64,000 nt of DNA from Candidatus Doudnabacteria bacterium (lineage in GTDB: Bacteria; Patescibacteriota; Doudnabacteria; UBA920), in the NCBI GenBank assembly GCA_031291995.1, contig JARLHZ010000010.1, positions 37,155-101,154 of the forward strand. Direction: 5' to 3'. Numbering within the stretch: position 1 is the first letter of the stretch; each line of letters opens with the position of its first letter. Position numbers and translations under genes: made by a program. Of this stretch, positions 3,307 to 59,962 are shown one piece after another. A model generated the notes under the pieces. It was not told the origin of the DNA, did not search any database, and saw only the letters and a list, made by a program, of their open reading frames with translations.

Positions 3307-3417
3307 CTCCAGTTGTGTCATCCCGACCGAGGAGTGCATCCGACGAGTGGAGGGATCCCTTAAATCTAACTAAGGGATTCCTCGGCCAGAGGGCAAAGCC
3401 TCGGAATGACACAAGAA
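3307..3417. repeat. Nested inverted-repeat (palindromic) element: tgtcatcccgaccgagg ... gggatcccttaaatctaactaagggattcc ... cctcggaatgaca
   Basis: Read directly; shares the ggaatgaca / cccttaaa motifs with elements at 10380-10442 and 56742. Confidence 0.6.
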
Positions 3418-20837: not shown

Positions 20838-21608
20838 TTATTGGTTGTTCAGCAAATCCGGACGGCGTTTTTTTGTGCGCTTCATTGCCTCATCCATTCT
20901 CCATTTTTCTATATTCGCATGGTGCCCGGATAATAAAACTTTCGGCACCTTCAAAATTTTTCTTCGCTTTGTAGGGACGGGTCTAGACCCGCCCCTACCC
21001 AGGGCAGGAATCATCAAAATTTCCGGTTTTGTATACTGCGGAAATTCCAGGCTATTTTCGGAAAAAGATTCTTTATCTGCGGATTCATCCTTGCCCAAAA
21101 TCCCTGACCTCAATCTCATTACCGCTTCGCTGATAACCAACGCGGGCAATTCTCCGCCCATTAAAACATAATCCCCGATGGAGATTTCTTCGTCTACAAA
21201 ACTTCTCACCCGCTCATCAAAGCCCTCGTATCTACCGCAGACAAAAATTAACTCATTAAATTTTGCCAATCGCTGGGCCATTTTTTGGTCAAACTTTTGG
21301 CCCTGGGGTGTTAACAAAATTATACGTGCCTGTGTAGGGGCGGATATTATCCGCCCCCTATGATCAGAGACCGACTTTATCGCTTTATATAAAATATCCG
21401 CGCGTAACACCATACCCACACCGCCGCCATATGGCCGGTCGTCAACAACCTGCCTCTCACCCAAACCAAACGAACGTAAGTTTATCGGCTGAATTTGTAA
21501 AAGCCCTAACTTAATAGCTCTTTTTACAATTCCAAAAGACTCCACAAAATTTTCTATAAATGAGGGAAATAACGTAATAATTTTAATCGATAACTTTTTA
21601 GACCTCAT
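20838..21608 (-). CDS. trmD: tRNA (guanine37-N1)-methyltransferase TrmD carrying two in-frame palindromic insertions
   Basis: TrmD motifs ([13 protein letters not shown]; [13 protein letters not shown]); extra segments [20 protein letters not shown] and IISAPTQAR coincide with the palindromes at 20971-20998 and 21333-21360. Confidence 0.85.
20971..20998. repeat. 28-bp palindrome gtagggacgggtctagacccgcccctac (in-frame in trmD)
   Basis: Near-identical perfect palindrome gtagggacaggtctagacctgtccctac at 54214-54242. Confidence 0.8.
21333..21360. repeat. Palindrome tgtaggggcggatattatccgcccccta (in-frame in trmD)
   Basis: Read directly. Confidence 0.7.
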
Positions 21609-25792: not shown

Positions 25793-25799
25793 AAATAAA

Positions 25800-25935
25800 A
25801 TGCCAAATAGCAAATACCAAATTACAAATCAATTCCAAATGTAAAATTTAAAATCAGTTTGCGATAAATGTTGGAAATTTGATATTTGGACATTTGGATT
25901 TTGTTTGATATTTGAAATTTGATACTTGAAATTTA
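25800..25935. repeat. AT-rich simple-repeat tract (atttgatatttgga / aatttgatacttgaaattt units)
   Basis: Same repeat family at 46720-46860 and, in shorter form, inside murF at 57505-57530. Confidence 0.6.
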
Positions 25936-26625
25936 ATACTGATTTTTCTTAAGCGCGTCTTCGGCCGCCGACAGTTCCGCTTCCTGTTTGCTCGGACCGG
26001 TTCCCCGCCCGACCTCTGTTTGCCCGACGTAAGCGGCCACCACAAAAACTTTGTTATGGTCCGGACCCGTTTCGCTGACCACGCCGTAAGTCGGCGTCAC
26101 GCCGTTTTTTTCCTGAATGATTTCCTGTAATTTACTCTTCGGATCAACATAACTGCCGCCGGCAATAATACTTGGCAGTTCGACCAAAACTTCGTTGATA
26201 ATAAATTGTTCGGCCGCTTTATAACCGGCATCCAGGTAGACCGCGCCAATGACCGCTTCAATGCAGTTGGCCAAAATTACCTGCCTGGCCCGGCCGGTAT
26301 CCTTGGCCTCGCCGCGGGACATTTGTAAAAAATTTTCAAAGCCCAATTTCTTGGAAATATCCGAGAGCATTTTATAATTCACCAGGGCGCTGCGAAAATT
26401 GGTCAACTCACCCTCGGGATGGGGATAATTTTTATAGAGATATTCGGTCGCCGCCAGCTCCAAAACGGCGTCGCCCAAAAACTCCAGACGCTCGTTATGG
26501 GGCAAACTAAATTTACGGTTCTCATTCAAATAGGACCGGTGGGTAAATGCCGAGACATAAAGGTCAAGATTGTTGACTTTTACTCCCAAAATTTTTTCTA
26601 GCTCCTGTTTATCAAGTGACGACAT
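25933..26625 (-). CDS. rnc: Ribonuclease III
   Basis: RNase III signature ERLEFLGDAVLELAATEYLY plus a C-terminal dsRBD. Confidence 0.93.
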   Translation of the reverse strand: MSSLDKQELEKILGVKVNNLDLYVSAFTHRSYLNENRKFSLPHNERLEFLGDAVLELAATEYLYKNYPHPEGELTNFRSALVNYKMLSDISKKLGFENFLQMSRGEAKDTGRARQVILANCIEAVIGAVYLDAGYKAAEQFIINEVLVELPSIIAGGSYVDPKSKLQEIIQEKNGVTPTYGVVSETGPDHNKVFVVAAYVGQTEVGRGTGPSKQEAELSAAEDALKKNQY

Positions 26626-26725: not shown

Positions 26726-26859
26726 GTGCCCCTCGACTACACCACGCTGCGCGTGATTGCGCTCGGGACACTCGACTCGCTCTGCACTTCTTCGTTGGTT
26801 GAGGCCTCCCAAAGGCCGAAACCACGAGCGAGCTTCGGCGTTAGCCGAAGCGAGTCGAG
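26726..26859. repeat. Structured repeat element V, immediately 3' of tRNA-Val (second copy 59769-59888, 3' of tRNA-Ala)
   Basis: About 130 bp alignable with 59769-59888; two internal hairpins differ by compensatory substitutions (cttcggcg-ttag-ccgaag vs ctttgacg-aaag-tcaaag; ggcctcccaaaggcc vs gccctttagggc). Confidence 0.7.
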
Positions 26860-26934
26860 TGGTGGGCGGCGAAGGAATCGGACCTTCGACCCTTTCTACG
26901 TCAAAGAAATGCTCTACCACTGAGCTAGCCGCCC
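26860..26934 (-). tRNA. tRNA-Val (anticodon GAC)
   Basis: Manual cloverleaf: acceptor gggcggc/gccgccc, D-arm gctc-agtggtag-gagc, anticodon loop ttGACgt, encoded CCA. Confidence 0.8.
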
Positions 26935-30164: not shown

Positions 30165-30365
30165 AATAAAGGTTCCCCGCCGCAAGCAGCGGGGTATTAC
30201 TGCAAGGAACAGCTGCATCTTCGCGGCAAGCCGCGAGGTATTGAACCTTTCTTTCCGCCAAAGGCGGATCCGCCTCCGGCGGAAGCTCCCTGCCTGGCGG
30301 CAGGCAGGCCTCGGCTCGCTTGTCCTTTGAAAGACAAAGGACAGACTCGCCTACGTCGCGAATAA
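30165..30365. repeat. Structured repeat element L between the pilin-like array and tRNA-Leu (second copy 59608-59760)
   Basis: Shared blocks aataaaggttccccgccgcaagc..ggggtattactgcaa and cctcggctcgct ... ctacgtcgc(g/t)aataaaa; internal hairpins differ (gtcctttgaaagacaaaggac vs cggccataaatggccg); minus-strand end forms a terminator-like GC hairpin plus U-run; carries an extra 28-bp GGATCC palindrome absent from the other copy. Confidence 0.65.
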
Positions 30366-46719: not shown

Positions 46720-46860
46720 CGGGCAATATCAAATTACAAATGTTAAATTACAAACAAAATCCAAATGTCAAAAATCAAATTACTCCGGCATTATAATAAA
46801 TTTGATTTTGATATTTGGATTTTGGTCTTGATTTGAAATTTTAAATTTGTAATTTTTAAT
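46720..46860. repeat. AT-rich simple-repeat tract (caaattacaaatg / atttgattttgatatttggattttg units), same family as 25800-25935
   Basis: Read directly. Confidence 0.6.
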
Positions 46861-51875: not shown

Positions 51876-53234
51876 CTATGGGTGGAATAATTTAATTATT
51901 GCGTCAAATTCTTTGTTATTCAATAATTTCTTTTCCAATACCAATTCACGGATGGTTTTGTTGCTATTGACGGCTTCCTTTACTAATTCACTGGCTTGGT
52001 CATAGCCGAGTTTTGGACTGAGCAGGGTGGCGTAGGCTGTGGATTTTTCCAGGAGTTCTTTACAACGCGCGCGGTCGGCTTTTATGCCGTCCACGCATTT
52101 TTTGGCAAATTGCAAAATTAATTCATCCATCAATTTTAAACTTTCAATTAACCGGTCGGTCATTATTGGCAGCATTACTCCCAGTTCCAGCTGAGCCCCT
52201 TCGGCTCCGTGCTCAATGGTCAAATTATTGCCCGAGACCAAAAAGTACAGCTGGCTAACGGCTTCAAGTAAAACAGGATTCACTTTGCCCGGCATAATCG
52301 ACGAGCCGGCCTGCAGCTCCGGAATCATGATTTCTCCCAATCCCCCTTTGGGCCCGGCCGAGAGCCAGCGCAGGTCGTTGGAAATTTTGGACAGGTCGAC
52401 GCAAAACGCGACCAACGCCTGTGACATCCAGACAAAGTCGCTGTCACTACTGGTTTGAGGCATAAAGTTAGCCGCGGGCTTTAGCGGCAGTTTGGTAATT
52501 TTATCGAGTTCAATGTATAACTGCTTAATGTATTTTGGAGAGGCGTTTATGGAATTACCGACCGCCGTGCCGCCTAAATTCAGCTCCAACAGATTCTCCA
52601 TAGCTTTGCGGATTCGCTGCTGGCCGCGCCTGACGTATGCTTCGTACGAGGCAAATTCGCTTCCCAAGGTAATAGGTACCGCGTCCTGCAGATGCGTGCG
52701 ACCAAGTTTTACTATTGATGAAAAATCGCGGGATTTTTTTTGCAGGCTTAGCGCCAGTACATCCGTTGTCGCGAGCAATTTTTGCGCCAAACGGTAAGCG
52801 GCAATCTTAAATGCCGACGGCATAACATCATTTGTCGAATGCGACATGTTAACATGGTCGTTGGGATGCACCAGCGGAAGCTCTCCCCTTTTGAGGGGAG
52901 ATGCCCGAAGGGCAGAGAGGTTGCCTTGCAAAATCTCAGTAGCCCGGGCGGCAATTACCTCGTTGGCATTCATGTGGTTTGAAGTCCCGGCGCCGCCCTG
53001 AAATGCCGGCAGGACAAATTGCTCCCAGTGTTTGCCTTCCAGTATCTCATCGCAGGCCTTCACAATCGCGGTTTTCCTGGCATTATCCAATTCTCCCACT
53101 TTATTATGGGCAATGGCCGCGGCTTTTTTAATTTCCACTAATGCCAGCAAAAACTCTCTGGGAGCTTTACGGAAACTGAACGGAAAATTCTTAATCGCCT
53201 TTTCCGTTTGCGCACCGTAATATTTTTTATTCAT
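51876..53234 (-). CDS. Class II fumarase/aspartase family lyase (FumC/AspA) with an in-frame hairpin-element insertion
   Basis: Signature GSSIMPGKVNP; HPNDHVNMSHSTND block; extra LSALRASPLKRGELPL encoded by the element at 52878-52920. Confidence 0.85.
   Translation of the reverse strand: MNKKYYGAQTEKAIKNFPFSFRKAPREFLLALVEIKKAAAIAHNKVGELDNARKTAIVKACDEILEGKHWEQFVLPAFQGGAGTSNHMNANEVIAARATEILQGNLSALRASPLKRGELPLVHPNDHVNMSHSTNDVMPSAFKIAAYRLAQKLLATTDVLALSLQKKSRDFSSIVKLGRTHLQDAVPITLGSEFASYEAYVRRGQQRIRKAMENLLELNLGGTAVGNSINASPKYIKQLYIELDKITKLPLKPAANFMPQTSSDSDFVWMSQALVAFCVDLSKISNDLRWLSAGPKGGLGEIMIPELQAGSSIMPGKVNPVLLEAVSQLYFLVSGNNLTIEHGAEGAQLELGVMLPIMTDRLIESLKLMDELILQFAKKCVDGIKADRARCKELLEKSTAYATLLSPKLGYDQASELVKEAVNSNKTIRELVLEKKLLNNKEFDAIIKLFHP
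52878..52920. repeat. Hairpin mini-element (ctcccc-tttt-gagggga; cccgaagggc) in-frame in the fumC/aspA-like gene
   Basis: Same family as 20088-20150 and 56944-57070. Confidence 0.65.
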
Positions 53235-53260
53235 CGGATTATTTTAATGGATTTAAACAG

Positions 53261-53290
53261 TTGTATTATAGACCATTTTTCAGGTATAAT
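53261..53290 (+). promoter_or_regulatory. Promoter of tRNA-Ser (TTGTAT-18-TATAAT)
   Basis: Read directly; the tRNA 5' end lies 14 nt downstream. Confidence 0.55.
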
Positions 53291-53303
53291 AAACACCAGC
53301 CGC

Positions 53304-53393
53304 GGAGAGGTCGCATAGTGGTCTAGTGCGCTGGTTTCGAAAACCAGTAGGGGCGCAAGCCTCTCGAGGGTTCGACTCCCTCCCTCTCCGCCA
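53304..53393 (+). tRNA. tRNA-Ser (anticodon CGA), type II
   Basis: Acceptor ggagagg/cctctcc, anticodon stem ctggt/accag with loop ttCGAaa, long variable arm, T-arm gaggg-ttcgact-ccctc, CCA encoded. Confidence 0.8.
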
Positions 53394-53428
53394 CAGTCGC
53401 TCGCAGCGGCGTGGCTCCGCCAGAAAGT

Positions 53429-53456
53429 TAAACCCCCGAATTCGGGGGTTTTAGAT
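53429..53456. terminator. Terminator hairpin (aacccccgaattcgggggtt plus T-run) shared by tRNA-Ser (+) and rnhB (-)
   Basis: Read directly. Confidence 0.75.
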
Positions 53457-54212
53457 TGACCGCAAATTTTTGCAAAAACTTTTACGATGAACCGACGACA
53501 AGCCGTTTTGGAGAATCATTGTTCGATGAAACAAAGTACCGTAACCTTTGTGCTGGGCAAAGTTGTAGATTGGGTAGTCCTGATGAATTTTGGTCATAAG
53601 CCGATCGCGATAAACTTTCGCGATTATAGAGGCGGCGGCAATCGAAAGAATTTTATTGTCACCGTCTACTACGGCTTCCTGGTCAATATCAAAATTGGGG
53701 ATAGTAAATTTGCCATCGATAACCAAAAATGGTCTTTTCGTGCCTTTGTAGTGCAGGCCCTCGGCCTGCTTTTTCTTTTGGGGCAGGCCATGGGCCTGCA
53801 CTACATGAGAAAATAATAACCCTTCAACTGCCTTGCGCATTGCCAGCAATGTCGCGTTGTGAATATTTATTTCGTCAACTATTTCCTGCGAAACTTGCCC
53901 GATGCTCCAAGCGAGCGCCTGCTCTTTAATAATAGAGGATAATTCTTCGCGCTTTTTAACGGAAAGTAATTTGCTATCGCGCACACCCTGCTTCATGTCC
54001 CATGTTTCAAGATTCATGATTACCGCCCCGGCCACCACCGGTCCGGCCAGACACCCGCGTCCGACTTCGTCGCAGCCGATAACCATGTGATAACCATCGG
54101 ATATTTTTTTCTGTTCGTAGCGAAAATTCATAGGTTTAATGTCAAACAAGATTTCTTGCAAATCCGTTTCACCCTTTTCTGGCTTAACACCATCAAAGCG
54201 AAGATGAAACAC
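53451..54212 (-). CDS. rnhB: Ribonuclease HII with an in-frame palindromic insertion (N-terminal extent uncertain)
   Basis: VIGCDEVGRGCLAGPVVAGAV catalytic N-terminus, DSK ... motif; 21-aa insert VVQAHGLPQKKKQAEGLHYKG encoded by the nested palindrome at 53748-53810. Confidence 0.85.
   Translation of the reverse strand: MFHLRFDGVKPEKGETDLQEILFDIKPMNFRYEQKKISDGYHMVIGCDEVGRGCLAGPVVAGAVIMNLETWDMKQGVRDSKLLSVKKREELSSIIKEQALAWSIGQVSQEIVDEINIHNATLLAMRKAVEGLLFSHVVQAHGLPQKKKQAEGLHYKGTKRPFLVIDGKFTIPNFDIDQEAVVDGDNKILSIAAASIIAKVYRDRLMTKIHQDYPIYNFAQHKGYGTLFHRTMILQNGLSSVHRKSFCKNLRSI
53748..53810. repeat. Nested palindrome gtagtgcaggccc-tcggcctgc ... ggcaggcca-tgggcctgcactac, in-frame in rnhB
   Basis: Related copy gtagtgcgggccacgggcctgcactac at 58418-58445 (intergenic). 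Confidence 0.7.
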
Positions 54213-54213
54213 A

Positions 54214-54242
54214 GTAGGGACAGGTCTAGACCTGTCCCTACG
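54214..54242. repeat. Perfect 28-bp palindrome gtagggacaggtctagacctgtccctac (intergenic, rnhB-ddl)
   Basis: Same family as the trmD in-frame copy at 20971-20998. Confidence 0.8.
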
Positions 54243-54248
54243 AAAAAA

Positions 54249-55433
54249 TTATTGTCGAATTTTTTTGCCGCCTAACTTCGCTCCGTTCAATTGCTTTAGC
54301 ACGCTGCTTTCAAATGTAAAAGTTATTTCCCGCTTCTCTTTGAATTTTTCTTCCGCGAATTTTATCAGCTCTTTCAGTAATTCATCCAGCTCCAATCCAC
54401 TTGCCTTCCACAAGTGGTGGTACAATGTTCCCGGCATCGGATTAACCTCGTTGGCAAAAAATTGTTTGCTCTGTTTGTCAAACAAAAAATCCACGCGAGC
54501 AATTCCGCTGCACCCTAAAGCTTTATAAACTTTTAGCGCGGCATTTTGTAAGGCGGATGTGGTCGCCTCATCGAGTCTGGCGGGGATAATCAGGTTGTTA
54601 ACTGCTTTACCGGTCTGGGCTCCGCCGTCGCTGATATATTTGTCTTCAAAATTAAACAAGTCATTATTAAAAACCGATTCCTGCAATAAAGAGGCGCGCG
54701 GCTTTTTATTTCCAGTAATACAGCAAGTGACGTCCATTAAATTTTCCACAGCCTGTTCCACCAAGACCTTCTCGTCATAATGCAAAGCAACTTCAATCTT
54801 TTGTTCCAGGTCTTTGTCGTCTTTGGCTTTTCCAATGCCAATGGAAGAACCCAAATGAACCGGCTTGACAAACAATGGATACTTTCCTAATTCTCTAATT
54901 TTCTCTTTTACTAATTCTCTGTTTTCTTCCCAGTCTTGCTTATAAAAATAAACAAACTTCGTCGTCGGAATGCCCGCGTCCTTCATGACGATTTTGGTCA
55001 ATGCCTTGTCCATAGCCACGACCGAGGCTGGCACACCACAACCGACATAAGGAATACCGAGCATCTCAAACATGCCCTGAATGGTTCCGTCTTCCCCGTA
55101 AGTTCCATGAAACGCGGGAAAGGCCATATCAATTGTAATTGATTTTCCGGCAAACCCCTTGCGCTTAAACACCATCTTCCCCACCGACTCCTGCATGTCC
55201 AAATAGTATTCAAAATATTTTTTGTTGTCTTCCGGTTTATGGTTAGGGTCGGTAAACAATTTTAAGTTTCCCAAATCCTCGTCCAGCATCCACTTGCCGG
55301 TCTTGGTTATGTAAACCGGTGTTACCGGATAGCCCAAACCTTTCAGACCCGCGATGATGAGTTGGGCGGTAATAATAGATATATCATGCTCCGTACTGCC
55401 GGAGCCAAAAAATACGCCAATGTTTTTTGTCAT
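54249..55433 (-). CDS. ddl: D-alanine--D-alanine ligase
   Basis: IGVFFGSGSTEHDISIITAQ N-terminal domain, ATP-grasp motifs; start at MTKNIG. Confidence 0.9.
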   Translation of the reverse strand: MTKNIGVFFGSGSTEHDISIITAQLIIAGLKGLGYPVTPVYITKTGKWMLDEDLGNLKLFTDPNHKPEDNKKYFEYYLDMQESVGKMVFKRKGFAGKSITIDMAFPAFHGTYGEDGTIQGMFEMLGIPYVGCGVPASVVAMDKALTKIVMKDAGIPTTKFVYFYKQDWEENRELVKEKIRELGKYPLFVKPVHLGSSIGIGKAKDDKDLEQKIEVALHYDEKVLVEQAVENLMDVTCCITGNKKPRASLLQESVFNNDLFNFEDKYISDGGAQTGKAVNNLIIPARLDEATTSALQNAALKVYKALGCSGIARVDFLFDKQSKQFFANEVNPMPGTLYHHLWKASGLELDELLKELIKFAEEKFKEKREITFTFESSVLKQLNGAKLGGKKIRQ

Positions 55434-55448
55434 AATTTTTTTCTGTCG

Positions 55449-55491
55449 GTAGCGTGCCCATTTATGGGCGTTCCCGGATCGCCGATAAATC
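55449..55491. repeat. Hairpin gtagcgtgcc ... ggcacgctac enclosing gccgataaatcggc; a 22-mer is shared with 10420-10441 upstream of dnaK
   Basis: Exact 22-mer gccgataaatcggcacgctaca occurs at both sites. Confidence 0.65.
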
Positions 55492-55503
55492 GGCACGCTA
55501 CAG

Positions 55504-56658
55504 TTACATAATTGTTCTTCTCAAATGCTGCGGGATGTGCACCAAAATTTCGTACGGAATACATTCGCAAAGTTTGGCCAAATTCTCTATAGAGTTTTTA
55601 TCATTTTTGTTGGCGCTAATTACAAACACTTCATCTTCCAGCTTTACATCGGGAACTTCGGTTATATCTATGCTGCTCATGTTCATACTCACGCGCCCAA
55701 CAATCGGACAATAAATCCCACAAACCTGATAAGACCCTTTATTGGACAGCCGGCGATCCACTCCTTCAGTATACCCCACCGGCACGGTGGCAACAATCAT
55801 GGGTTTTGTCGCTTCAAACGTAACCCCATAGCCGACTTTTTCCCCGGCTCCGATTTTTTTTATTGAACTGAGTACGGACACGAGCTCCATTACGGGTTTT
55901 AATTCCAGTTTTACTTCACGTGAAGGGTTAATCCCATAAAGTCCAATCCCCAACCGGCTGACGTTGGCCTCGATTTTATCCGCGTAGGCCGCACCGGCGG
56001 TATTAGAAGCGTGAAAATATCGAATATATGAAAACTCTTTTTTAAATTGGACGGCCGTGGAATTCCACTTTGCAATCTGGCCTAAAGTAAACCGGTTATC
56101 CGCGCCGTCGGCATCGGCAAAGTGGGTGCAGAGGCCTTCCAAATTAATATTCCGATTGGATTTAATGGCCTTTATTGCTTCGGCAATTTCCGATTCCATA
56201 ATCCCCTGCCGGTTCATCCCGGTATTTATTTTCAAATGGATGTTCAGCGGCCGAGTTAATTTGGCGGATAAATTTTTTAAAATTCCCAAATCAATAATTC
56301 CAAAGCTGACCTCATTTAGCTTGGCGGATAATAATTCATTTTCCCGGCAATATCCCAAAACCAAAATTTTGGTTTTAATGCCGTGCTGGCGCAAAGTCAG
56401 GGCTTCGTAAAATGAATCAACCATAAAAAACGCCACATCTTGATTATCGAGGACCTCCGCGACCTGGACCATGCCGTGACCATAAGCGTTACTCTTTAAT
56501 ACCGGCGCGAAAATTAAATTTGGATATTTGCCCTGGAAGCCGTGCAAATTAAATAATAGAGCGTCTTTAAAAATCCGCACTTCAATTAACGGTTGGTAAT
56601 TTATTTTTGGTGACAATATTTTATTTAAAATTTTTCTAATGTTGCTCAATTTTGTCAA
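55504..56658 (-). CDS. alr: Alanine racemase
   Basis: PLP-site motif APVLKSNAYGHG; TIM-barrel plus C-terminal beta domain size. Confidence 0.88.
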   Translation of the reverse strand: MTKLSNIRKILNKILSPKINYQPLIEVRIFKDALLFNLHGFQGKYPNLIFAPVLKSNAYGHGMVQVAEVLDNQDVAFFMVDSFYEALTLRQHGIKTKILVLGYCRENELLSAKLNEVSFGIIDLGILKNLSAKLTRPLNIHLKINTGMNRQGIMESEIAEAIKAIKSNRNINLEGLCTHFADADGADNRFTLGQIAKWNSTAVQFKKEFSYIRYFHASNTAGAAYADKIEANVSRLGIGLYGINPSREVKLELKPVMELVSVLSSIKKIGAGEKVGYGVTFEATKPMIVATVPVGYTEGVDRRLSNKGSYQVCGIYCPIVGRVSMNMSSIDITEVPDVKLEDEVFVISANKNDKNSIENLAKLCECIPYEILVHIPQHLRRTIM

Positions 56659-56815
56659 TCTTATTTAATCTTGGTCAATTATTTATACAGGATTTCAGAT
56701 ATTTTTGACTGCCGATGAAATGCTAACTACAGTCAAAAATTCTGGAATGACAGAATTTCCTGTCCCCTCAATTTTGTCAATTTTATTTAATCTTGGTCAA
56801 TTTTGGTCAATTCTA
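56645..56815. promoter_or_regulatory. Two direct copies (56647-56680, 56770-56805) of caattttgtcaat(c/t)ttatttaatcttggtcaatt between murF and alr
   Basis: TTGTCAAT / TTGGTCAAT units, same family as 7110-7160 and 37388-37450. Confidence 0.5.
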
Positions 56816-58396
56816 AATGTACTGGTCTCCCCAGTCGTTCTGAAACATTACCACGTCGCCGGGTTTTAAAATATTTTTCAAGCCCGCGTGGGCTTCTAGT
56901 GCGCTGTCAAACCAAATAATTTGCGGTTTTTTGACTCCAACCACCTCCCCCGCTGACGCGGGTACTCCTCCTTGAAAAGGAGGAGAGCTCGACGTTTTTT
57001 CGGACAACCGCGGAGCCTCCCCTCCTGGCAAGGAGGGGTGTCCCGCAAAGCGGGACGGGGAGGTCTGAATTCCTTCTTCAACAAACCCCGTCACGCTATT
57101 TCTTATAAAAATTGCAACGTCCGCCACGCCGGCAAGCTCCCGGCCAATTTGCCGATGAACTTCGGCGGAAGAGTTCCCCATTTCCACCAAACCGGGCGTA
57201 ATATATATTTTCCGCCGGTTTGTGAATCGCGACAAAACCTTTATTGCCTCCCCCACCCCGTCCGGATTGCCGTTGTACGCGTCATCTATAACTAATACCT
57301 CGCCCGCCGATTTAATCGGCTGCAGCCGGTGCTCCACGGGCTTTATATTTGTAATACCCCGTTTCAGCTCATCATCCGACATCCCCAAATTTTTGCCGAT
57401 CTTGACCGCCGCGTCCACATCACCCAGCGCGTACTCTCCCAATAAGTTTACTTCAATTTTACCAAACGATTCCAATTCCGCTTCCCAGCAAAGTTTTTCG
57501 GTATTAAATTTTTGATATTTGATATTTGATATTTGTCCGCCAAAGGCGGATCCGCCTTTGGCGGAATATTTTTCCACCTTGTGGTCCGGCCAAATAAATT
57601 TTTTATAATTATCCATTACTCTTTTATCATCGGCGTTTAACAGCACCACAGCTCCGGGCTCGGAGCCGCTGACAATTTCAAAAATCGTGGACGCCACCGT
57701 TTCCATATTTTTCATTCGTTCCAAATGCGATTCGTTTATGCCGGTTACCACGGCAATATTAGGCTTTGCTATATCGCAGATCTCCCCAATGTCCCCGGCG
57801 TAATGTTCCCCCATTTCTACTATTAATACCTGAGTTTCATCAGTCACCTTATTTAAAATCCACCGCGCGATTCCCACCGGCGTATTTACACTGTCCGGAG
57901 TGGCTAATACCTTAAACCTAATACCTAATACCTTCCCCAGTACTTCCTTCATCGTAGTCTTGCCGTAACTGCCCGCTACCCCGATTATTTTTAAATCAGG
58001 CGGCATATTACCGATTTTAGATTTGGCGCGGATCGCCAATCTTTTTTTTGCCAAACTATCAAACGGTTTAAGCAGCAATAATACAACGCTAAATAACAAA
58101 AAATAAAAAGGCGACAAAATTATCGCCGCGATAACCGCGGCAACAAAAAAATTGCCGATTGAACCGGTTAAAATTACAGTTATTAAGCCGCTAAAAATTA
58201 TGACAAAACCGTGCAAAGCCACCGCCATAAGCATCATTGCCTTGGCTTTTACGCTCCACACCAATTCCTTCCGCTGTTCCCCTCTCGGCCATGGCCCCTT
58301 TTTAAATAACAACTTCCAATACCTGCCCAGCTCATAGTTTTCCAGCTGGAGCAGGTACAATTGATACCTTATAAATTTCGGAACAATAAAATCCAT
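56813..58396 (-). CDS. murF: Mur ligase family UDP-MurNAc-pentapeptide synthetase (MurF-like) with an N-terminal membrane extension and two in-frame repeat-element insertions
   Basis: Mur ligase P-loop GSYGKTT and middle/C-terminal domains; upstream of alr-ddl; about 100-aa N-terminal segment with 2-3 TM helices; inserts at 56944-57070 and 57505-57564. Confidence 0.75.
   Translation of the reverse strand: MDFIVPKFIRYQLYLLQLENYELGRYWKLLFKKGPWPRGEQRKELVWSVKAKAMMLMAVALHGFVIIFSGLITVILTGSIGNFFVAAVIAAIILSPFYFLLFSVVLLLLKPFDSLAKKRLAIRAKSKIGNMPPDLKIIGVAGSYGKTTMKEVLGKVLGIRFKVLATPDSVNTPVGIARWILNKVTDETQVLIVEMGEHYAGDIGEICDIAKPNIAVVTGINESHLERMKNMETVASTIFEIVSGSEPGAVVLLNADDKRVMDNYKKFIWPDHKVEKYSAKGGSAFGGQISNIKYQKFNTEKLCWEAELESFGKIEVNLLGEYALGDVDAAVKIGKNLGMSDDELKRGITNIKPVEHRLQPIKSAGEVLVIDDAYNGNPDGVGEAIKVLSRFTNRRKIYITPGLVEMGNSSAEVHRQIGRELAGVADVAIFIRNSVTGFVEEGIQTSPSRFAGHPSLPGGEAPRLSEKTSSSPPFQGGVPASAGEVVGVKKPQIIWFDSALEAHAGLKNILKPGDVVMFQNDWGDQYI
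56944..57070. repeat. Composite hairpin element (ctcctccttgaaaaggaggag; cctcccctcctggcaaggaggggtg; gtcccgcaaagcgggac) in-frame in murF
   Basis: Encodes about 39 extra aa (SPSRFAGHPSLPGGEAPRLSEKTSSSPPFQGGVPASAGE). Confidence 0.7.
57505..57564. repeat. (tgatatt)x3-4 microsatellite plus the 28-bp palindrome ccgccaaaggcggatccgcctttggcgg, in-frame in murF
   Basis: The same palindrome (one variant) sits inside repeat L at 30255-30282. Confidence 0.7.
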
Positions 58397-58453
58397 ATAT
58401 TATTTTTTATCCCGAATGTAGTGCGGGCCACGGGCCTGCACTACACGTCGCAA

Positions 58454-59209
58454 TTAGGTTATAAATTCTCCCACCGCTTTTGCGAATTCTTCCGGCTCAT
58501 CCGAAAAGCTGAAATGGCCGGCATGTTTGAGAATTAGGAATTTGGAGTTTGGAATTAGGAATTTCATAAGTTCCCCGAATTTTGGAGGCGTGTCTTTGTC
58601 ATTTTTCCCGTTTATAATTAGCGTCGGCACGGTAATTTTTTTCATGTCTTCCGATAAATCTTCGCTTGTAATATTGACAAAAGTTTTTTGCAGTTCCGGC
58701 GTAGCTAGGTAGTCTTCCGCCCCGATTGATTTATAAATTTTTTTTCGCAATCCGTGCATAAACTCCGGCTTAAAAAAAGGCTTTACAATTTTTGCGCCAA
58801 TCTTCATCATATTCTTTTTATCCGATGGCATGGCAAACCCGGCGCTGTCCGCTAAAATTAGCTTGCTGATTAATTCCGGATGTCCAGCCGCCAGTTTAAT
58901 TCCAATGCGGCCGCCGAACGAATGGCCGATGATTATTACATTAGTAAGTTCCAATTTTTTAATGAACCCCGCCACAACTTCGGCATAACCCCCTACTGTC
59001 ATCGCATGCATTGGGATTTGCGACCCACCAAACCCGGGCAAATCCAGGGCAAACAAATGACAATTGACAATTGACAATTTACTTAGCACATTTTGCCAAA
59101 TTTCTTTATTGGAACGCCAACCATGCAAAAAAAGCAAGGTTTTGCCGGCATCCCCCGATGTTTCCTGGTAACTAATTAAATAATTATTTACGATAACCTG
59201 CTTAGTCAT
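58454..59209 (-). CDS. Alpha/beta-fold hydrolase
   Basis: HGW ... nucleophile elbow GHSFGG. Confidence 0.75.
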   Translation of the reverse strand: MTKQVIVNNYLISYQETSGDAGKTLLFLHGWRSNKEIWQNVLSKLSIVNCHLFALDLPGFGGSQIPMHAMTVGGYAEVVAGFIKKLELTNVIIIGHSFGGRIGIKLAAGHPELISKLILADSAGFAMPSDKKNMMKIGAKIVKPFFKPEFMHGLRKKIYKSIGAEDYLATPELQKTFVNITSEDLSEDMKKITVPTLIINGKNDKDTPPKFGELMKFLIPNSKFLILKHAGHFSFSDEPEEFAKAVGEFIT

Positions 59210-59768: not shown

Positions 59769-59888
59769 TGCCCCTCGACTCGGTTGCGCTCGCTCGGGAC
59801 ACTCGATTCGCTACAAAGCTGGTGGTCGGTCGAAGCCCTTTAGGGCGTAGACCACGAGCGAGCTTTGACGAAAGTCAAAGCGAGTCGA
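59769..59888. repeat. Structured repeat element A (copy of V), immediately 3' of tRNA-Ala(GGC)
   Basis: See V. Confidence 0.7.
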
Positions 59889-59962
59889 GTGGTGGACCTG
59901 GAGGGAATCGAACCCTCGACTAATCCATGCCATGGATCCGTATTACCATTATACTACAGGCC
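59889..59962 (-). tRNA. tRNA-Ala (anticodon GGC)
   Basis: Acceptor gggcctg with G3:U70, D-arm gtat-aatggta-atac, anticodon loop atGGCat, CCA encoded. Confidence 0.8.

Follow-up and report, generated by a model that had tools for sequence, protein, structure and literature searches.

Results

Two related palindromes in rnhB and upstream of murF

The 64,000-nt stretch analysed here (the window, whose positions serve as coordinates throughout) comes from a metagenome-assembled genome (MAG) of Candidatus Doudnabacteria, a bacterium of the Candidate Phyla Radiation (CPR), and carries two palindromes tagged with the tetranucleotide GTAG. The longer one lies inside rnhB, the gene of ribonuclease (RNase) HII, and the shorter one between an alpha/beta-hydrolase gene and murF, within the conserved gene order hydrolase-murF-alr-ddl-rnhB. 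Their units resemble repetitive extragenic palindromic (REP) sequences, and the locus is organized as follows.

53451..54131, minus strand: rnhB, RNase HII, 226 amino acids, identical to ortholog P0001 (MDR3642356.1); host gene of the long element
53748..53804, inside rnhB: long element, a 57-nt putative REP doublet, REPIN-like, with the GTAG tags outermost; 23-nt arms, 91% complementary
53783..53804, minus (coding) strand: REP unit 1, with GTAG tag, 7-bp stem GCAGGCC/GGCCTGC and loop CAT; 0 mismatches to the unit pattern
53770..53782, minus strand: A-rich 13-nt spacer CCCAAAAGAAAAA (coding strand), encoding PQKKK; differs among orthologs, with the stems conserved
53748..53769, plus strand: REP unit 2, inverted relative to unit 1, GTAGTGCAGGCC ctc GGCCTGC; matches the unit pattern
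56813..58396, minus strand: murF-type Mur ligase gene, downstream neighbour of the short element
58418..58444, intergenic: short element, one 27-nt hairpin with both GTAG and CTAC tags, GTAGTGCGGGCC acg GGCCTGCACTAC
58454..59209, minus strand: alpha/beta-hydrolase gene, upstream neighbour of the short element

On its plus strand, the long element reads GTAGTGCAGGCC ctc GGCCTGC, spacer tttttcttttggg, GCAGGCC atg GGCCTGCACTAC. It is a nested palindrome in which two inverted 22-nt units, each with GTAG at its head and then a 7-bp GC stem that closes a 3-nt loop, stand around the 13-nt spacer. Units of the form GTAG-T-GCAGGCC-nnn-GGCCTGC are found at 53748-53769 (+), 53783-53804 (-) and 58418-58439, the last of them within the short element, which lies 9 nt past the hydrolase stop codon and 21 nt ahead of the murF ATG (58396). 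A first-pass annotation of the DNA had assigned 63 bp and 21 residues (53748-53810) to the rnhB palindrome. The palindrome proper measures 57 nt, or 19 codons; the trailing KG belongs to the flank, and the coordinates had been shifted by 6 nt against the peptide that accompanied them. The short relative, which had been placed at 58418-58445, does exist, with its extent corrected to 58418-58444 (27 nt; 58417-58445 when the flanking T and A are counted).

Palindromes are thus present both in rnhB and upstream of murF, as first described, and their arm and unit counts exceed those of shuffled sequences. The arm motif GTAGTGCRGGCC (at most one mismatch) has four matches in the window, which are the four arms, against a shuffle mean of 0.29, and a count of four was reached in 0 of 100 shuffles. 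The 22-nt unit GTAGYGCAGGCCNNNGGCCTGC (at most three mismatches; degenerate form of the family unit, GTAGYGCRGGCC-N3-GGCCYGC) matches at two loci only, 53748-53804 and 58418-58444, with 0.03 expected. Among perfect palindromes, the GTAG...CTAC type was seen three times against 0.19 in block shuffles, a signal that is weak alone, the maximum of 300 shuffles also being 3. Folded as single-stranded DNA (ssDNA), the long element forms a single 22-pair hairpin on either strand (-26.8 kcal/mol, z = -9.1), an energy matched by 0 of 200 shuffles; the short element gives -12.6 and -15.2 kcal/mol, one value per strand. Over 3115 nt that include the element, window 52319-55433 is matched without a difference by an independent Logan assembly (L123, SRR23300986), and the rnhB element is therefore not an assembly artefact. 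The features at 53748-53804 and 58418-58444 are real and non-random.

The long element encodes a loop of RNase HII

The long element is read in frame on the coding (minus) strand as VVQAHGLPQKKKQAEGLHY, 19 residues that constitute residues 111-129 of RNase HII and are placed between helix 82-113 and strand 134-139. Comparison with the RNase HII of T. maritima (3O3G) aligns query residues 14-105 and 132-220 to chain residues 10-96 and 99-185, respectively. In keeping with the in-frame insertion originally proposed for rnhB, 26 residues (106-131) stand where the T. maritima enzyme has a 2-residue turn joining the helix to the strand with the catalytic DG motif, and the core fold is intact. The AlphaFold2 model has a mean predicted local distance difference test (pLDDT) score of 89.8, with values that fall to about 50-55 in the insert, shown as coil; its best structural matches are the RNase HII enzymes of E. 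coli and T. maritima. The rnhB gene is intact, and the motifs conserved among orthologs are present. The model depicts the insert as a low-confidence loop on an intact fold, and the 19-residue loop is probably disordered.

The insert is not ancestral among CPR orthologs

We aligned the 120 best RNase HII orthologs (P0001-P0120), all CPR-like, extracted the loop equivalent to window 53742-53816 and sorted the loop peptides by motif.

13 of 120 orthologs: loop of the rnhB/murF REP family, comprising ten long forms and three 9-residue forms
27 of 120 orthologs: short loop, no insert
about 80 of 120 orthologs: other longer inserts, as judged by peptide motif

The 9-residue forms, such as VKQARGLRY, are translations of the 27-nt form. 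In the loop-masked core, the four closest orthologs (76-77% identity) carry another insert type or none; the nearest relative of carrier P0053 (84%) has no insert, and that of P0002 (85%) has another insert type. Between the end of the element and the DGKF motif, carriers have from 3 to 11 residues. The REP insert is common to the small clades P0032/83/92 and P0018/53 and, in part, to P0002/80/12/28. In a neighbour-joining tree of 118 orthologs with the loop masked, the carriers are scattered. This tree is star-like and without support values, and a single ancestral insertion was accordingly weighed, and rejected, by nearest-neighbour identities. Because the loop has two residues in T. maritima, is empty in over a fifth of these CPR orthologs and holds another insert or none in the nearest core relatives, we conclude from the ortholog sequences that the insert was not present in the ancestor of the lineage, and that several gains or replacements are needed.

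The RNase HII loop as a whole appears to be filled in about three quarters of the 120 CPR orthologs, and the inserts fall into at least five peptide-motif types: IPSECSRVEES..SLHSSDALLGRDDT; CHCEGVHPTEAI..ASSPVKALAPRNDK; VILRPSASEAEES..QDDA; NHPAS..QGGVPRA; and the rnhB/murF REP family. One ortholog, P0028, has a nested loop insert. Of the other motif groups, only two are tied to palindromic or hairpin DNA through copies in the window, namely GSLHSSDALLGRDDT at 3313-3414 and PPFQGGVP..GEV in the C-terminal region of murF. The loop is either an insertion hot spot or very permissive.

Conservation and decay of the element in rnhB carriers

Element DNA was read at eight rnhB loci. Near-perfect doublets are found in the window, L001 and L244, whose stems are almost identical and whose loops and spacer vary. 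As compared with the window, L001 has a T>C change in one arm paired with an A>G change in the other, and unit 1 of the L246 rnhB copy has GCAGCCC/GGGCTGC instead of GCAGGCC/GGCCTGC. The copies of L245 to L249 are decayed, through mismatches, loss of GTAG (L248) or degeneration of the second unit (L249). In all CPR copies, a T stands ahead of GTAG and an A behind CTAC. Third-codon identity in rnhB between the window and the other carriers is 41-47%, near saturation. A single old insertion drifting neutrally since then could therefore not have kept stems so nearly identical; either the copies are recent and derive from conserved masters, or the stems are under constraint. The decay of the L245-L249 copies argues against a general constraint.

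Long and short forms at one site

L148 is a low-GC contig of a close relative, in which the hydrolase and murF are, by eye, close homologues of those in the window. Its hydrolase-murF spacer holds a 57-nt form at the exact site of the window's 27-nt form; the first loop is CGT, as in the short form of the window, the flanks align, and the TAG stop codon of the hydrolase gene is provided by the GTAG of the element. In the same spacer, L246 has a single variant REP unit, and L001 has a palindrome of a different, unrelated family. Long and 9-residue forms are also mixed at one position in the rnhB clade P0032/P0083/P0092, and a 30-nt deletion between direct GGCCTGC repeats would turn the 57-nt form into the 27-nt form. 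The kinship originally claimed for the two palindromes is supported by their common 12-nt arms and GCAGGCC/GGCCTGC stem, as well as by the L148 form at the orthologous site; to judge by these sequences, the long and short forms are one element. Neither a T-run nor a terminator-like site, as expected of an intrinsic terminator, was found in 58250-58650, no promoter-like site lies near the short element, and the elements have no Rfam match.

The same family at other loci and in other phyla

We scanned one genome per species with the unit pattern; the matches listed are mostly chance or coding matches in high-GC genomes. Among them are at least seven CPR loci, four in Doudnabacteria (L013, L019, L021, L062) and three in Saccharibacteria (L040, L098, L108). 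Six of these seven are intergenic, and the remaining one, L040, consists of one REP unit located within a Mur ligase gene, where it reads DVVQALGLP. L246:1042 is a further Doudnabacteria locus of the REP family. The Doudnabacteria genome GCA_038203095.1 has at least four loci on three contigs (L021, L062 and two in L246), and GCA_023245915.1 has at least two (L019, L245). Inverted doublets with 10-13-nt spacers are formed by the window rnhB copy, L001, L244, L148, L021 and L062, and the matches listed also include clear doublets in Acidobacteriota and Verrucomicrobiota. When both arms were required, a scan of metagenomes gave at least 121 matches, nearly all in contigs of 55-70% GC.

Among the matches listed, the loops of the high-GC soil relatives are 4 nt long, and their two forms measure 28 nt and 52-53 nt. 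Loops of 3 nt are found in the CPR copies, whose short forms (27 nt) have lengths divisible by three, as have the long copies in rnhB and L148 (57 nt); L021 and L062 hold long intergenic copies of 53 nt. By these matches, the rnhB/murF element can be assigned to a widespread REP family.

In the metagenome contigs (L124-L243, 55-70% GC), palindromy often passes beyond the GTAG/CTAC tags into copy-specific flanks: 25 of 115 high-GC elements among the matches listed have at least three complementary flanking pairs. The pattern suggests that the elements entered hairpins already in place or that their palindromes grew outwards.

Other palindromes in the window

Further palindromic or hairpin-forming segments occur in the window.

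54214-54241, between rnhB and ddl, and 20971-20998, in frame in a trmD-like gene (residues 204-213): second GTAG...CTAC family, 28-nt perfect palindrome GTAGGGACAGGTCTAGACCTGTCCCTAC
55449-55501, between alr and ddl: third GTAG...CTAC family, GTAGCGTGCCCATTTATGGGCG ... CGCCGATAAATCGGCACGCTAC
57536-57565, in frame in murF: 30-nt palindrome TCCGCCAAAGGCGGATCCGCCTTTGGCGGA, encoding SAKGGSAFGG; intergenic relative at 30253-30284
56896-57084, murF, near the C-terminus: composite hairpin-rich segment (..PPFQGGVPASAGEVV..)
52880-52917, in frame in an aspartase/fumarase-type gene: hairpin TCTCCCCTcaaaAGGGGAGA (..SPLKRGEL..)
26769-26861 and 59800-59891, minus strand: two related elements of about 93 nt, CACTCGACTCGCT ... 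AGCGAGTCGAGTG then TCCCGAGC
46725-46854 and 25795-25937, intergenic: long AT-rich imperfect inverted repeats of AAATTACAAAT-like units
3313-3414, 5' end of a TrmB-like open reading frame (ORF): 102-nt palindrome TTGTGTCATCCCGACC ... GGAATGACACAA

The longest ddl ORF has an N-terminal extension that takes in the palindrome at 55449-55501; since ddl begins at MTKNIG in an independent gene call, the palindrome is probably intergenic. Units related to its family occur in L019 and L244, and the Logan contig L123 stops at 55433, just before it. The peptide of the 30-nt murF palindrome is also found in the RNase HII of P0014. The elements of about 93 nt overlap the encoded 3'-terminal CA of tRNA-Val(GAC) and tRNA-Ala(GGC) and continue directly downstream, with no Rfam match at gathering score. 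The palindrome at 3313-3414 encodes ..GSLHSSDALLGRDDT.. only with the long GTG-start ORF and probably lies upstream of the true TrmB-like start (MYSEVF..). The first-pass annotation had counted at least five housekeeping genes with in-frame palindromes, which is roughly right: in-frame palindromes stand in rnhB, murF (two sites), trmD and aspA, whereas those of ddl and the TrmB-like gene lie upstream of the probable true starts. Of the in-frame palindromes, the rnhB insert is the one that was compared with orthologs.

Discussion

We consider it likely that the palindromes in rnhB and upstream of murF are a GTAG-tagged REP-type repeat, inserted, in the case of rnhB, into a permissive loop. Both copies would belong to one non-autonomous, hairpin-forming family of the REP/REPIN type. 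The doublet may have become fixed in the permissive surface loop of RNase HII, with the enzyme core unchanged, because 57 nt preserves the frame and the frame used has no stop codon. The murF-upstream copy would be the same element minus one unit and the spacer, following a 30-nt deletion between direct repeats, and it appears to occupy the usual place of a REP, just past the 3' end of the upstream gene. The copies would be made by a Y1 (HUH) REP-associated tyrosine transposase (RAYT) acting on the single-stranded hairpin and its GTAG head, and would themselves be neutral passengers. The GTAG tag and the relatives of the family point to mobilization by a Y1 enzyme, a step that we put forward tentatively and at somewhat less than an even chance.

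Alternatively, selection on the protein could have preserved the 19 residues as a functional RNase HII loop that is old and specific to the lineage, with the palindromic DNA incidental or secondary. The 13 orthologs do use the same frame and have similar peptides (V.Q..GLP...KQ.EGLHY), several of them followed by K-G/D/E. However, the same DNA stands in non-coding spacers (58418-58444; L148, L021, L062, L019, L013, L098, L108), a single REP unit is also present in a Mur ligase gene (L040), and the nearest orthologs have other inserts or none. Furthermore, the stems are kept at the DNA level while the loops and spacer, and with them the residues, vary, and the insert is modelled with low confidence. 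A functional loop is largely refuted already by these observations, and we regard it as very improbable. Equally improbable is local origin by template switching, through quasi-palindrome correction or snap-back synthesis, in place of transposition of a family. The palindromy that runs beyond the tags into variable flanks in high-GC relatives (the 25 of 115 elements among the matches listed) would fit such a process, but a local process cannot account for 12-nt arms and 7-bp stems that recur across unlinked loci, different genes and several phyla. This already contradicts template switching as the source of the family, even if it may help to keep the arms complementary.

A role for the hairpins in the host deserves more weight, although we judge it unlikely. 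The structure would then be selected, as a stabilizer or processing site at mRNA 3' ends, a translation-pausing hairpin in rnhB, or a site for a nucleoid protein. The very stable fold is consistent with such a role, as are the paired changes that preserve pairing (T>C with A>G in L001; GCAGCCC/GGGCTGC in unit 1 of L246) and the filling of the murF-upstream site in three genomes; positions near the 3' ends of upstream ORFs are typical of REPs, for which roles in mRNA stability have been proposed (PMC3733652). By comparison, there is no T-run, no terminator-like or promoter-like site and no Rfam family at the elements, the copies of L245-L249 are visibly decaying, and unrelated palindrome families stand at the same spots elsewhere (for instance the L001 hydrolase-murF spacer), which speaks for tolerance of insertion and not for a specific function. 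The paired changes would be equally expected from different subfamily masters.

Several points weigh against insertion of a mobile REP-type repeat, which we nevertheless prefer. The 64-kb window holds just two loci (three units) of the family, and the sequences compared include no empty and filled pair close enough for a target site or duplication to be read. K-G/D/E stands right behind the element in several rnhB carriers, and this recurrence could leave room for fewer, older insertions than the scattered tree suggests. In addition, all 13 rnhB copies and the Saccharibacteria Mur ligase copy use one frame when a second frame is open too, and such single-frame use is unexpected under pure neutrality.

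The enzyme side raises objections of the same kind. No Y1 transposase was found in the 64-kb window by HUH-motif regular expression, by tblastn with five Y1 proteins or by hidden Markov model (HMM) search; the Y1 HMM was built from 120 Y1 homologues and run on six-frame ORFs of the window and the other sequences examined. Y1_Tnp genes do occur in Doudnabacteria, as a protein of L013 scores 30.3 bits on Pfam Y1_Tnp (cut-off 23). The same protein reaches only 26.8 bits on NCBIfam REP_Tyr_transpos, the RAYT equivalog (cut-off 80), and its gene is flanked by TGTGNGCAAtgggaatcTTTGCNCA (378-410, 1072-1100), a motif related to the GTGNCAAAGgtgctCTTTGCCAC repeat of L250 and outside the rnhB/murF REP family. 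A Y1_Tnp protein, P0122 (MDR3642604.1), is probably encoded in the same MAG as the window, because its accession number lies 248 from that of the window RNase HII (MDR3642356.1); its gene, in L250, is flanked by direct copies of GTGNCAAAGgtgctCTTTGCCAC, four in 10.6 kb, again outside the rnhB/murF family, and the Y1 gene of L251 is flanked by GGGGAATCC hairpins that are likewise different. Unlike the REPIN-RAYT or REPtron arrangement, no RAYT flanked by the rnhB/murF family was found when the flanks of the L013, L250 and L251 Y1 genes were read.

The L250 repeats lie at positions 2847, 5779, 9959 and 10629 (AGTGNCAAAGgtgctCTTTGCCACT), one inverted doublet included. An AGTGC/GCACT or TGTGCA/TGCACA foot is common to the flank repeats of L250 and L013 and to the rnhB/murF family, and may or may not be meaningful. 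On the contig of ortholog P0003, a weak Y1_Tnp match lies directly upstream of murF. The Planctomycetaceae contig L102 has a weak RAYT-like ORF beside a cluster of GTAG palindromes with one unit of the rnhB/murF type, a proximity that is suggestive only.

If the inserts are REP-type repeats, the odd extra segments in housekeeping proteins of this CPR genome would be explained by selfish palindromes tolerated in surface loops, and new protein domains would be unneeded. Annotation and alignment call for caution, as such inserts inflate ortholog similarity, extend N-termini artificially and coincide with assembly breaks. The locus also offers a tractable system, with one loop of a small enzyme that holds many unrelated inserts, long and short forms at one site in close relatives, and a candidate Y1 enzyme probably in the same MAG; a possible use would be the study of REP-type spread where genomes are very small and intergenic space is nearly absent. 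A bolder and rather improbable extension would have at least five apparent palindrome families repeatedly inserting at the same small set of permissive loops in essential CPR enzymes and overwriting each other there, perhaps by targeting pre-existing hairpins, so that an occupied loop becomes a landing pad. It would further take the consensus, equal to that of REPINs of soil Acidobacteriota, Verrucomicrobiota and Planctomycetota, as the mark of a REP-transposase system that has passed from phylum to phylum, possibly between CPR epibionts and their hosts.

Comparison with known repeat systems

GTAG-tagged REP families that form inverted dimers and are associated with RAYT genes have been described by Di Nocera et al. 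(2013; PMC3733652). In that account, REPs lie near the 3' ends of upstream ORFs, the tags can supply stop codons, and intragenic units and dimers encode 20-30 residues. REPINs and the RAYT (TnpA_REP) Y1 transposases have been treated by Bertels and Rainey (2011; PMC3116915) and Messing et al. (2012; PMC3479197). The rnhB/murF units likewise carry GTAG at the end of a short GC-rich stem-loop and are paired in inverted orientation across a short spacer, and the two inverted REPs of the rnhB copy form one long hairpin, as in REPINs. The copies appear to be dispersed and lie for the most part between genes, near the 3' end of the ORF upstream, with an occasional intragenic dimer that encodes about 20 residues, and several families coexist in one genome. 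The structural and positional features of GTAG-tagged REPs are thus found here; a transposase gene flanked by the same REPs was not found at the loci read.

The rnhB element resembles the Rickettsia palindromic elements (RPEs) in behaviour only: an in-frame palindrome in a housekeeping gene of a reduced genome adds a surface segment and does not destroy the protein, and the insertion in a conserved protein gene is absent from the closest orthologues. RPE-1 is about 100-150 bp long; the rnhB element is shorter and carries another tag, and no sequence relationship is expected. RPEs were reportedly described by Ogata and colleagues in 2000. The short Rickettsia palindromes are tagged with CGTC, not GTAG (PMC3733652). 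With the IS200/IS605 elements, in which a Y1 HUH enzyme acts on single-stranded hairpins, the family would share its presumed chemistry, namely recognition of a hairpin and an adjacent short motif in ssDNA. The rnhB/murF element differs from them in having no gene, and no left-end/right-end asymmetry or target tetranucleotide can be defined in it.

The searchable literature yielded no description of palindromic elements, miniature inverted-repeat transposable elements or REPs in CPR bacteria (Patescibacteria). This kind of element is already known, though reports of it from this ultra-small bacterial group appear to be lacking. As compared with the GTAG-tagged REPs described so far, the host is a CPR bacterium (Doudnabacteria), and this host group, a single loop very often occupied by different inserts, and a consensus common with high-GC soil bacteria are the less ordinary features of the system.

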